Shown here piece by piece: positions 28,642-54,919 of a stretch of DNA of 64,000 bases; the stretch's first letter is position 1; each line of letters begins with the position of its first letter. The notes beneath the pieces were generated by a model, which saw only the letters and a program-made list of their open reading frames with translations, did not search any database and was not told the origin of the DNA. The stretch lies in assembly GCF_003334255.1 (NCBI RefSeq), contig NZ_QOWU01000006.1; one strand, given 5' to 3'. The stretch comes from Escherichia coli (GTDB lineage: Bacteria > Pseudomonadota > Gammaproteobacteria > Enterobacterales > Enterobacteriaceae). The position numbers and the translations under genes are program-made.

Positions 28642-28742
<101 letters not shown>

Positions 28743-29695: not shown

Positions 29696-29784
29696 TGTAG
29701 GCCGGATAAGGCGTCCCCGCCGCATCCGGCACAGGCACCGTGCTGATGTCTGATGCGACGCTGGCGCGTCTTATCAGACCTACA
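29696..29784. repeat. BIME: two inverted REP elements
   Basis: TGTAGGCCGGATAAGGCGtccccGCCGCATCCGGCA and GATGCGACGCTGGCGCGTCTTATCAGACCTACA. Confidence 0.8.
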
Positions 29785-42905: not shown

Positions 42906-43805
42906 TTACGCAGAGAAAAAGGCGATGAGGATCGGCACTAACAGGCTAAGAATAAAACCGTGAACAATTGCCGCCGGGACCATATCCAGCCCGCCAGTAC
43001 GTTGAAGAACGGGCAGGGTGAAATCCATTGATGTGGCACCGCATAAGCCCAGTGCAGTAGAGCGGCTGCGGCGAATCAGCCCAGGGATCAACATAATAGC
43101 AATCAGTTCACGGGCCAGATCATTAAAAAACGCCGCGCTCCCGATTACCGGACCAAAAGATTCGGTCAATAAAATACCGGAAAGAGAATACCAGCCGAAA
43201 CCGGAGGCCATTGCCAGCGCGGTATTGATGGGGAGATCAAGAATAAAGGCGTTAATTAAACCACCAATTAATGAACTGACAACCACCACCACGGCGACAA
43301 TCATTCCCCGGCGATTAAGGACAATCTGCTTTAAGGTCATGCCATTATTGCGCAACTGAATACCAACGAGGAAAAGTAGCAAAATTAACGTGTATTCACT
43401 GGCTTCGGTCGCGTGTTGTAAGAAAGCCAGTCCACTTAGACCAATGGCAAAACCAATCACTACTACGCCGCACAGTTTTAGCGACTCCAGCGCCATCGCA
43501 ATACGCGACGGGAGTTTTTCTTGCTGATGGTGGTTGCGCCACGGCAGGCCTCGCTCCAGCCACATCAGGGCGGCAATATTACACAGTAAAATAACGGTAA
43601 TACTGACGGCAGAATAATGCAGAATCGCCAACAGGTTACTGGCGAGGTTATCGAGAAACGCCAGACTGATACCCATAAAAAAGAGAATAAGGTAAACCAT
43701 CCAGCTTAATAGCTGATTAATAACTTTTAACGCAGCTTGTTGGCGAAGCGGAATGAGGTAACCCACAATCAGGGGAACCAGAATGATTAACAGCCCAGAA
43801 AACAT
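42906..43805 (-). CDS. lysO: Lysine exporter LysO (YbjE)
   Basis: ORF 42906..43853; ATG at 43805 (MFSGLLIILVPLIVGYL) gives 299 aa; polytopic. Confidence 0.85.
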   Translation of the reverse strand: MFSGLLIILVPLIVGYLIPLRQQAALKVINQLLSWMVYLILFFMGISLAFLDNLASNLLAILHYSAVSITVILLCNIAALMWLERGLPWRNHHQQEKLPSRIAMALESLKLCGVVVIGFAIGLSGLAFLQHATEASEYTLILLLFLVGIQLRNNGMTLKQIVLNRRGMIVAVVVVVSSLIGGLINAFILDLPINTALAMASGFGWYSLSGILLTESFGPVIGSAAFFNDLARELIAIMLIPGLIRRSRSTALGLCGATSMDFTLPVLQRTGGLDMVPAAIVHGFILSLLVPILIAFFSA

Positions 43806-43979
43806 GAAAACCCAGTCCTTGCAAAGATGAAGTCGAAATGCGCGATGACACACTACTGAAAGCGGAAGGACGAGTAAAGTTGCAATTAAAAGGAAATGTT
43901 ATGCATAAGGAGCAGTAGAGTATTCGTTTTCATTTAAAGATATTCTTGCGCTTTAATTACAAACTGCACCGATGTTGGT

Positions 43980-44200
43980 GGCGTCAAAATCGCCGAGGCG
44001 TTCCCTGAAGGCCGGGGCAGCCCACATGGATGTGGGCTGAGGGCGCGTTTTACAGGGATGTTACCTCGCGCCCGACCCGGTAGCCGTAAGGGATAAGCCG
44101 AGGGCACCGCGCAGCGGCGATTTTGTTCGCCAGAGCCCGGGGGTGCAGGGGGCGGCGGCGATTGGCCGCCCCCTGCGCGCTCCTTGCGCCAGTGGCAATA
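43980..44200. other. GC-rich, stop-rich structured intergenic element upstream of lysO
   Basis: No ORF of 60 aa or more in any frame; 12-bp perfect GC stem 44145-44156/44165-44176; 9-bp stem 44018-44026/44031-44039; long-range inverted repeat 43980-43995 vs 44115-44131. Confidence 0.5.
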
Positions 44201-44260
44201 TGTTGCTTAGCTCATGAAAGGAGCGCAACAAGATGATGAATCAACATATAACAACATCTT

Positions 44261-44289
44261 AAAAAAAGGCCTGACATTACGCCAGGCCT
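44261..44289 (-). terminator. Intrinsic terminator of aqpZ
   Basis: Minus strand hairpin AGGCCTG-gcgtaatgt-CAGGCCT followed by TTTTTTT. Confidence 0.75.
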
Positions 44290-44299
44290 TCTGCGTTAA

Positions 44300-44995
44300 T
44301 TAATCACGCTTTTCCAGCAGGGTCCGGTAAATCAGACCACCGATAATGCCGCCGACAATTGGCACCACCCAGAAGAACCACAGTTGTTCTAATGCCCAGC
44401 CGCCCTGGAAGATAGCAACCGCGGTGCTGCGCGCCGGGTTAACAGAAGTGTTAGTCACCGGAATACTAATTAAGTGAATCAGGGTTAAGGCCAGACCAAT
44501 AGCGATCGGCGCAAAACCTGCCGGCGCGAATTTGTCGGTTGCGCCGTGGATCACCAACAGGAAACCTGCACTCAATACCAGTTCAACTACCAGCGCGGAA
44601 AGCATGGAATAACCGCCTGGTGAATGCTCGCCATAACCGTTAGAAGCAAAACCGCTGGCTGCCGCGTCAAAACCCGTTTTACCACTGGCAATTAAATACA
44701 GCAGCGCCGCTGCAACAATACCGCCGACAACCTGGGCAATTACGTAGCCAACGACTTCTTTTGCCGGAAAACGTCCGCCAGCCCATAAACCAATAGTGAC
44801 CGCCGGGTTAAAATGACCACCAGAAATATGACCAACAGCAAAGGCCATCGTCAGAACGGTCAGACCGAACGCCAACGCCACGCCGGCAAAACCAATGCCT
44901 AATTCCGGGAAGCCTGCGGCCAGTACAGCACTACCACAGCCACCAAAAACAAGCCAGAAAGTACCAAAACATTCAGCTGCTAATTTTCTGAACAT
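44300..44995 (-). CDS. aqpZ: Aquaporin Z
   Basis: ORF 44300..45001; ATG at 44995 gives 231 aa; two NPA motifs. Confidence 0.9.
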
Positions 44996-54700: not shown

Positions 54701-54788
54701 GTTCACTGCCGTACAGGCAGCTTAGAAATTCACAGGTAACATACTCCACCCGCCCACCATGTTCACTGCCGTACAGACAGATAAAATG
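54701..54788 (+). CRISPR. Orphan type I-F CRISPR mini-array (2 repeats, 1 spacer)
   Basis: Repeat 1 GTTCACTGCCGTACAGGCAGCTTAGAAA (54701-54728); 32-bp spacer TTCACAGGTAACATACTCCACCCGCCCACCAT (54729-54760); degenerate terminal repeat GTTCACTGCCGTACAGACAGATAAAATG (54761-54788); no cas genes in window. Confidence 0.85.
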
Positions 54789-54831: not shown

Positions 54832-54919
54832 TGGCGGTGAGGGGGGGATTCGAACCCCCGATACGTTGCCGTATACACACTTTCCAGGCGTGCTCCTTCA
54901 GCCACTCGGACACCTCACC
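54832..54919 (-). tRNA. serW: tRNA-Ser (anticodon GGA)
   Basis: Minus strand reads GGTGAGGTGTCCGAGTGGCTGAAGGAGCACGCCTGGAAAGTGTGTATACGGCAACGTATCGGGGGTTCGAATCCCCCCCTCACCGCCA; long variable arm; encoded CCA. Confidence 0.95.

Follow-up and report, generated by a model that had tools for sequence, protein, structure and literature searches.

The lysO-aqpZ Spacer and the Identity of Its Element

The 64,000-nucleotide stretch of Escherichia coli DNA analyzed here (the window) carries the gene order hcp-lysO-aqpZ-ybjD, the same as in K-12. The spacer between the start of lysO (position 43805) and the stop codon of aqpZ (44300) is 494 bp long, as a previous sequence-only reading of this DNA had measured. 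As described there, it contains a GC-rich block amid AT-rich flanks, with a G+C content of 0.59 to 0.74 in 100-nt windows between 43950 and 44199 and of 0.35 to 0.41 on either side. The block holds no ORF of 60 amino acids or more, the longest being of 57 and 56 amino acids on the minus strand and of 37 on the plus strand. Its size had been put at about 220 bp; the block is real, but the true unit is wider, running from approximately 43956 or 43964 to 44229 or 44231, and includes a third hairpin at 44177-44226.

Comparison with published descriptions and with other genomes showed that the GC-rich structured block of the lysO-aqpZ spacer is the TRIP1a repeat, which is also RRS-lysO; it is an already described element and not a new one. 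The TRIP1 repeats are those of Rudd (1999), re-surveyed by Li (2024; PMC10888264). The same element was reported as RRS-lysO, a "replication risk sequence," by Pham, Wood, Cox and Goodman (2023/2024; PMC10287960; PMC11194060) and is also the subject of a 2026 preprint (10.64898/2026.06.16.732529). The terminus region of E. coli is flanked by two GC-rich repeats of 222-266 bp that are nearly identical, and RRS-lysO is one of them. TRIP1a was described as 266 bp long, with 62-65% G+C, and as lying upstream of ybjE/lysO, 158 bp from its start, and downstream of aqpZ, 70 bp from its stop (PMC10888264). Applied to the lysO start and the aqpZ stop of the window, these offsets give 43964-44229, on the plus strand, as the published extent of the element, and the homology shared by the family extends from about 43956 to 44231, the edges being set by comparison of alleles and paralogues. 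In addition, the published G-quadruplex (G4)-forming motif of RRS, GGGGGTGCAGGGGGCGGCGG (PMC11194060), has a single exact match in the window, at 44139-44158 on the plus strand, with 0 expected by chance.

The search for other genomic copies that the sequence-only reading had recommended found the block in 5426 of 5426 complete E. coli genomes by megablast. It was matched at a median of 3 places per genome, with a maximum of 8, and is therefore a dispersed repeat. A paralogous copy lies between yohP and dusC (yohI), as published for TRIP1/RRS, and a shortened one, with an internal deletion of about 125 bp, lies between efeU (ycdN) and putP, also as published; a further copy is located between alx and sstT in some E. 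coli strains. Sequence identity among the copies is 91-94%. Locus, G4 motif, size, G+C content and paralogues all agree, and nothing distinguishes the lysO-aqpZ copy from the published RRS/TRIP1a.

The possibility of a repeat element, one of several that the sequence-only reading had raised, was thus the right one (PMC10888264; PMC11194060), and the idea of a novel RNA fails because the block matches a known dispersed repeat. The sequence-only reading had not recognized the element as REP, ERIC or a known riboswitch. No sequence or model similarity to REP-derived families was found; the naRNA4/REP model matched positions 29700-29780 in the window and two of the family loci collected (L002 and L007), never the element. 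An Rfam scan of the whole window at gathering level had no match at the element, and the scan at a permissive E-value, another check that had been suggested, gave no riboswitch and no sRNA match there but a sub-threshold match to the TwoAYGGAY motif, considered below.

Domain Architecture of the Element

The 285-nt element folded as plus-strand RNA at -146.5 kcal/mol (z = -5.8), with z = -5.3 as minus-strand RNA and z = -6.8 as plus-strand DNA; in each case 0 of 200 dinucleotide shuffles were as good. The fold is far better than that of shuffled sequence on both strands, in agreement with the earlier description of the block as highly structured and non-coding. Three domains were recognized on the plus strand.

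Domain I (43983-44129), delimited by minimum free energy folds and by covariation helices 1-9, consists of a long outer stem, GUCAAAAUCGCCG/CGGCGAUUUUG, round a junction with two adjacent GGA-loop hairpins. The long-range inverted repeat that had been noticed in the sequence is present here (16 nt, 88% complementary, 43985-44000/44110-44125), and about 15 pairs in total covary in the outer stem (helices 1-3). Hairpin H1 (44018-44039), located by the inverted-repeat search, had been credited with a stem of 9 bp; the stem exists and its length is 10 bp, all of them paired, with ACAUGGAUGU (44024-44033) in the loop. Among 102 family copies the H1 loop CA(U/G)GGAUG is invariant or nearly so and the stem covaries (CG:74, GC:24-28, AU:13). 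Hairpin H2 (44041-44073), supported by the repeat search and by the folds, has the stem GGGCGCG/CGCGCCC and carries UUACAGGGAUGU (44050-44061) at its tip; its loop CA(N)GGA(U/C)G is invariant and its stems covary (helices 6-8). A third conserved GGA motif, AAGGGAUAAG (44088-44097), is unpaired within domain I; the family alignment (A3) shows little or no variation in its AUAAG or in the G(G/A)A just before it. Domain I is the TwoAYGGAY-like module of the element. Natural deletions have removed it from TRIP1b and from the B2 allele, and the ST131 allele is devoid of both of its GGA hairpins.

Domain II (44145-44176), identified as an inverted repeat and in the folds, is the perfect 12-bp GC stem previously reported (GCAGGGGGCGGC/GCCGCCCCCTGC, 12 of 12 pairs, 44145-44156/44165-44176), and its G-rich 5' arm overlaps the G4 motif. 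It folds as DNA at -20.5 kcal/mol and covaries family-wide (helices 10-11). Covariation is evident even among the E. coli paralogues, the arms being GGGGGAGGAGG/CCTCCTCCCCC in TRIP1c and GGGAGCGGC/GCCGCTCCC in the B2 allele; the natural arms of the Citrobacter type are GTAAAGGGCGTGG/ACGCCCTTTAC. Domain III (44177-44226) is a hairpin closed by GCGCUCCUU/AAGGAGCGC, recognized by inverted repeat and covariation, which in other genera reads CGUUCAC/GUGAACG (helix 12).

A Shine-Dalgarno-like AAAGGAG followed by ATGATG at 44217-44240 was considered as the beginning of a small protein and rejected. It opens 9 codons only, and this look-alike is not a coding start because it is unconserved outside the Escherichia subfamily. 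Beyond the element lies allele-specific junction DNA. That on the lysO side (43906-43963) was delimited by spacer comparison and is wholly different in K-12-type and O157-type spacers; that on the aqpZ side (44230-44299), delimited by repeat search and spacer comparison, includes the aqpZ terminator hairpin (44266-44290), which is present in the K-12-type allele only.

Family Distribution, Covariation, and the Strand under Selection

A motif pattern matched at least 120 loci in species-representative genomes, often at least 6-9 loci per genome. The genera among the loci listed were Escherichia, Citrobacter, Klebsiella, Enterobacter, Kluyvera, Leclercia, Lelliottia, Trabulsiella, Silvania, Pseudescherichia and Pseudocitrobacter. 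One 5.4-Mb Klebsiella record holds the element at 13 places, and copies were also found in K. aerogenes and Citrobacter. The element therefore belongs to a multi-copy family present in at least 11 enterobacterial genera. Two groups of pattern matches were set aside. Those in Xanthomonadales, none of which was recovered by nhmmer and which scored at most 20 bits (E of at least 0.015) with a covariance model of the enterobacterial domain I (R1), were treated as unproven; those in MAGs, in a 'Bacillus' and in a 'Chryseobacterium' are near-identical to E. coli/Klebsiella copies on tiny contigs and are probably contamination.

A search with nhmmer gave 153 matches in the fetched loci, from which 102 distinct full-length copies were aligned (alignment A3). 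RNAalifold predicted 51 pairs on these copies, with compensatory double changes in 30 of them. Covariation analysis had also been recommended in the sequence-only reading, and the paired positions proved to be conserved: standard pairs occupied 98.1% of the pair cells in the 102 distinct family members, vs. 39-43% when the partners were slid by 1-3 columns, and the covariation score was 0.384 vs. 0.04-0.08 for the slid partners. All three domains covary, and the fold is conserved family-wide. Besides the hairpin loops, other unpaired motifs are invariant or nearly so in the alignment, namely the linker AGGG, CCCG(A/G)CCCG and G(G/A)AUAAG.

Among one-sided changes, G.U accounted for 76 cells (11 pairs, each in two or more sequences) and A.C for 14 (2 pairs); therefore, folding is selected on the G-rich strand, which is the plus strand of the window. 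The strand selected to fold is the one singled out by the published experiments. This bias leaves RNA and DNA undistinguished because the G.T wobble is also tolerated in single-stranded DNA.

With respect to the G4 motif, the G4Hunter score was 1.84 at 44139-44158 and the best value on the minus strand was 1.2, a one-strand G4 signal like that of RRS. In the family, scores of at least 1.5 were reached by 34 of the 102 copies and scores of at least 1.2 by 61, the canonical four-run G3 motif was present in a single copy, and only the Escherichia/Klebsiella-type subfamily carries the G4 motif. The hairpin overlapping it covaries everywhere, always with the G-rich arm at the 5' side. We infer that selection acts on the conserved hairpin fold rather than on the G4 by itself. 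In this regard, the main text of the 2024 paper (PMC11194060) mentions neither potassium, lithium or KCl nor a G4 mutant.

Replication-Gap Formation at RRS-lysO

The behavior of the element during replication has been characterized previously. By ssGap-seq, strong deposition of RecA and SSB was detected on the lagging strand from each RRS over about 2 kb; deletion of an RRS abolishes its peak, and insertion elsewhere, with the G strand as lagging template, creates a peak at the new site (PMC10287960; PMC11194060). In vitro, the G strand is a barrier to Pol I, II and IV (PMC11194060). Both RRS can be deleted only with a compensating 200-kb amplification or in the presence of ectopic or inverted copies, so that at least one copy is conditionally essential, and supercoiling is altered genome-wide (PMC11194060). 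In single-molecule replication, a gap formed at almost every encounter when the G strand was the lagging template and in about two thirds of the encounters when it was the C strand, and neither strand was efficient at gap formation as leading-strand template (10.64898/2026.06.16.732529). Gap formation, its dependence on strand and orientation, conditional essentiality and the effects on supercoiling were thus demonstrated by published experiments. In the window, the GC skew outside the element over the 64 kb is +0.03 on the plus strand; therefore, as judged from this skew rather than from a mapped origin, the G strand serves as lagging template at this locus, as it does in K-12.

Given these data, the best explanation of the element, to which we assign a probability of about 85%, is that RRS-lysO acts as a DNA-level gap trigger and is neither a gene nor a regulator of lysO. 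During fork passage, the G-rich strand (window plus strand) would be briefly single-stranded as lagging-strand template and would fold into the two-hairpin junction, the 12-bp GC hairpin overlapping the G4 motif and the third hairpin. The lagging-strand polymerase would stall at the folded RRS and re-prime downstream, leaving a post-replication gap of about 2 kb loaded with SSB and RecA, and this gap is proposed to serve as a transient swivel that relieves topological stress.

The pilE G4 element of Neisseria gonorrhoeae was cited by the RRS authors as the sole analogue (PMC11194060). In both systems a folded G-rich strand triggers gap or nick formation during replication, but sequence, size and organism are unrelated, and the output is pilin antigenic variation for pilE and topology for RRS.

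Orientation, Genomic Context, and Mobility

The K-12-type spacer was found in the same orientation, with at least 80% query coverage, in 4027 of the 5426 complete E. coli genomes. A full-length copy is inverted in place at the lysO locus in 896 of them, as in O157:H7, and about 500 further genomes are without the K-12-type lysO allele. Among the latter are B2 strains, of which BH100N is an example, with a lysO copy that is both inverted and truncated by an internal deletion; the lysO allele of ST131 is a forward copy that has lost 80 bp (43996-44075) and with them both GGA hairpins. At the yohP-dusC locus, 3310 of the 5426 genomes are arranged as in K-12, and in 2000 the copy is flipped. Orientation is thus flipped in 17-37% of the E. 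coli genomes, depending on the locus. Both loci are flipped in BH100N and, therefore, their G strands are on the leading template. Over 55 single-copy loci from many genera, the GC skew of the flanks on the G strand was positive in 25 and negative in 30; therefore, there is no family-wide lagging-template rule.

These observations qualify the published picture of RRS/TRIP1, since other genera have dispersed copies, E. coli is polymorphic for orientation, and conservation extends to the hairpins but not to the G4. They also count against the gap-trigger explanation: orientation is variable at lysO and dusC, the 55 loci have no skew bias, many genera carry at least 7-13 dispersed copies per genome rather than one Ter-flanking pair, and the G4 has a limited spread (34 of 102 copies at G4Hunter 1.5).

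The copies sit at the 3' ends of genes, and the gene pairs flanking them were convergent in 34 cases, tandem in 34 and divergent in 2. No significant orientation bias relative to genes was found in the tandem contexts (22 sense and 12 antisense). Adjacent inverted copies were head-to-head in 31 of 31 pairs and never tail-to-tail, with their 5' ends mostly 56-143 bp apart; in the two pairs read closely (loci L018 and L035), the partners came from different subfamilies. Presence or absence of the element varies within E. coli (PMC10888264). A MITE was considered and rejected, as no terminal inverted repeat (TIR) with target-site duplication and no clean empty site was found at lysO-aqpZ, yohP-dusC or alx-sstT. 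Between alleles with the element, without it or with it inverted, 40-100 bp of the junction DNA at either side is unrelated, and a candidate 13-nt terminal repeat falls in the allele-specific flank. The alx-sstT spacer without TRIP1d carries other repeats.

In attention to this variability, the family might be primarily a selfish or neutral dispersed repeat, like MITEs, REPs and BIMEs, that gathers at the 3' ends of genes. The gaps would then follow incidentally from its strong fold and would have been put to use, if at all, only in the case of the two K-12 copies. We regard this as possible, although rather unlikely. Consistent with it are the dispersed multi-copy state in Klebsiella (13 places in one record), Enterobacter, Citrobacter, Leclercia and Silvania; the many contigs of 222-583 bp that end in the element, typical of assembly breaks at repeats; and the variation of presence, orientation and internal deletion within E. 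coli. The distribution over convergent, tandem and divergent gene pairs, the lack of orientation bias with respect to GC skew and the pairing of unlike subfamily members in a fixed inverted geometry, which recalls BIME mosaics, point the same way. The absence of a TIR with target-site duplication and of a clean empty site at the three loci speaks against it, as do the published findings that at least one copy is conditionally essential and that supercoiling is affected genome-wide. No associated transposase was seen with the copies. Strong purifying selection on the loops and compensatory evolution of the stems argue for a function, which may be one that serves the element itself.

The family resembles REP/BIME and ERIC in being extragenic, palindromic, GC-rich, located at gene 3' ends, variable among strains and arranged in inverted pairs with unlike partners; it differs in its length, about 270 bp vs. 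35-127 bp, and in its three-domain fold. To our knowledge, there is no RAYT-type partner for the element.

Resemblance to the TwoAYGGAY Motif and Possible RNA Roles

The best Rfam match in the spacer was that of the full-length TwoAYGGAY model (RF01731; Weinberg et al., 2010), at 43984-44123, with 30.2 bits and E = 0.012. This score and those of other E. coli copies (30.9-33.1 bits) can be compared with the 49.2 bits of a divergent partner element in Pseudocitrobacter, which is above the gathering score of 43; the E. coli scores are below it. Covariance models match in both directions. The motif pattern also retrieved Lachnospiraceae loci, two of which (L093 and L094) are bona fide TwoAYGGAY RNAs (Rfam 87 bits). 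The R1 model matched three Lachnospiraceae loci at 27-40 bits, with E-values that are optimistic because these loci had been pre-selected with a related pattern, derived from the same motif.

L093, L094 and RRS share the core GGG-H1(CAYGGAUG)-A-GGG..H2(CAxGGAYG)..CCC-GA-CCCG. The likeness comprises two adjacent hairpins with CA(Y/G)GGAYG loops, a single-A joint, a short GGG/CCC helix and a very long outer stem, and a very long P1 stem was noted for TwoAYGGAY by Weinberg (supplement). The H1 loop fits with AUGGAU, and the H2 loop reads AGGGAU here, with R for Y, many members having AUGGAU or AUGGAC in H2. RRS differs in adding the GC hairpin with the G4 motif and the third hairpin, both outside the Rfam model; furthermore, TwoAYGGAY is presumed to be an RNA and RRS was shown to act as DNA. 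As judged from sequence and predicted structure, the link is a resemblance and not a demonstrated membership. It appears to be unrecorded in the portions of the literature consulted, and none of six enterobacterial accessions looked for occurs in the examined part of the original Weinberg TwoAYGGAY alignment.

The invariant loops and covarying stems suggest a sequence-specific partner, which the gap model does not require. One tentative reading, which we hold to be unlikely, is that RRS/TRIP1 is the enterobacterial branch of TwoAYGGAY and that its GGA loops bind a conserved partner, either CsrA on RNA or a protein on single-stranded DNA.

Still less probable is that the element is also, or instead, a transcribed TwoAYGGAY-type RNA whose GGA hairpins bind a CsrA dimer, as a sponge or as a 3'-UTR element; an RNA role is speculative. 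Binding of CsrA has been proposed for TwoAYGGAY (PMC4333381), and the CsrA SELEX consensus is RUACARGGAUGU (PMC4347634; PMC2896534). By resemblance, the loops ACAUGGAUGU and UUACAGGGAUGU nearly match this consensus, and they remain invariant while their stems covary. The two GGA-loop hairpins are 28 nt apart. Work by Mercante et al. in 2009 is said to place such a two-site spacing within the range bridged by a CsrA dimer. The GGA loop motifs, close to the CsrA consensus, also recall CsrB/CsrC; RRS differs from these in having 2-4 GGA sites vs. about 9-22, in having no promoter or terminator of its own and in its variable orientation to genes.

Several observations weigh against transcription. 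By consensus scan, which is weak evidence, no sigma-70-like promoter was found in 43700-44400, and none reaching 9 of 12 matches in the 90 nt that precede each of 101 family copies. For the independent sRNA that the sequence-only reading had raised as an option, neither a promoter-like site in the spacer nor a promoter and terminator of the CsrB/CsrC type was found. A recurrent weak promoter, TTGAAG-18-GAAAAT, was discarded, as transcription would start inside the covarying outer stem. The sense bias in tandem contexts is not significant, and in the window the strand with the GGA loops runs antisense to lysO and aqpZ alike. The TRIP1b, ST131 and B2 alleles have lost the GGA module, and the strand bias is no proof of RNA given the tolerance of G.T in single-stranded DNA. 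In the literature, no transcript or CLIP support for the element was found, including CsrA CLIP with aqpZ, and nothing usable was found on RSA/boxC or on the lysO transcription start site.

Finally, control of the lysine exporter gene lysO by this highly structured element, which lies 158 bp upstream of the gene's start, is hardly credible, whether as a riboswitch or, in the leading idea of the sequence-only reading, as a structured 5' leader or cis-regulatory RNA: the folding strand of the element (window plus) is antisense to lysO, it has no Rfam riboswitch match, its paralogues adjoin unrelated genes (yohP-dusC, putP-efeU and alx-sstT), about a quarter of the E. coli genomes keep lysO but have the element inverted, truncated or replaced, and the upstream DNA common to all alleles ends at about 43905, at ...GTTATGCAT, short of the element, which therefore places the conserved lysO promoter between element and gene.

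Significance for the RRS/TRIP1 Family

By itself, the observation in the spacer re-discovers a described element and adds nothing new. Besides that element, for which we favor the role of a DNA-level gap trigger, just one other bacterial sequence is known to program post-replication gaps. The comparison across genera indicates that evolution keeps the three-domain hairpin fold and the GGA loops on the G-rich strand, and keeps neither the G4 motif, nor the Ter-flanking position, nor the lagging-template orientation. If the TwoAYGGAY link is real, RRS would be the first experimentally studied relative of that orphan motif. In such a case, an unrecognized RNA- or protein-mediated function may lie behind the conditional essentiality of RRS or, alternatively, what is called 'TwoAYGGAY RNA' in gut Clostridia may be a structural repeat that works at the DNA level and is coupled to replication; the strictly head-to-head arrangement of partners from unlike subfamilies would then be part of the same biology.

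Arrangement and Copy Number of the Family Elements

All 31 adjacent pairs of elements of the TRIP1a family (L018, L035 and 29 further loci) were arranged head-to-head and none tail-to-tail, with the gap between the 5′ ends ranging in most of the head-to-head pairs from 56 to 143 bp. In the two pairs that were examined closely, located at 3649-4238 of L018 and 1868-2430 of L035, the partners belonged to different subfamilies. In Klebsiella pneumoniae strain 176 (L016, 2551-3268), two near-identical elements lay in direct tandem, with 437 bp from start to start, and the record of this strain contained 13 element places. Element copies were far more numerous in Klebsiella than in E. coli.

Pattern Matches and TwoAYGGAY RNAs in Other Bacteria

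The GGA-hairpin motif pattern also matched Xanthomonadales (L025, L033, L045, L062, L063, L089, and L107-L109), including, among the matches listed, several Pseudoxanthomonas, Stenotrophomonas, Arenimonas and Lysobacterales genomes, with three matches in P. mexicana. At these loci, nhmmer gave no family match and R1, the covariance model built from the enterobacterial domain I, scored at most 20 bits. The matches are either the result of chance in GC-rich genomes or a distantly related family.

Bona fide TwoAYGGAY RNAs (Rfam RF01731) were present in Lachnospiraceae UBA7093, at 2480-2740 of L093 (minus strand) and 1200-1460 of L094 (plus strand). Each is enclosed by a near-perfect inverted repeat of about 43 nt, whose sequence is wholly different between the two loci while the TwoAYGGAY core is conserved. 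Either a P1 stem of great length that covaries or insertion into palindromic targets could account for these repeats.

Other RNAs and Repeats in the Window

Rfam revealed, at gathering level, the RybB sRNA (16924-17002, minus strand) and, on the plus strand, ES036 (28678-28720) and the REP/BIME-derived naRNA4 element (29700-29780). In addition, a type I-F-like CRISPR repeat pair at 54702-54788, adjoining a tRNA gene (54835-54919), consisted of GTTCACTGCCGTACAGGCAGCTTAGAAA and a degenerate second copy separated by one 32-nt spacer, with 50 bits for Rfam CRISPR-DR4. This pair appears to be the vestige of the clpA-infA CRISPR locus in E. coli.

Variation of the Spacers

The alx-sstT spacers lacking the TRIP1d copy (L013, L014) carried one or two units of other short GC-rich repeats, of the GGGTGAGGG / CCCTCACCC type. 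This spacer is a hotspot for differing repeat families.

The lysO-aqpZ spacer includes the intrinsic terminator hairpin of aqpZ (AAGGCCTG/CAGGCCTT followed by a T-run, 44259-44290), which, in the comparison with the O157-type spacer (L008), was exclusive to the K-12-type allele. Given that in the O157-type allele, in which the element is inverted, the sequence past the aqpZ stop codon is unrelated to that of the K-12-type, aqpZ 3′-end formation would have to differ across lineages.
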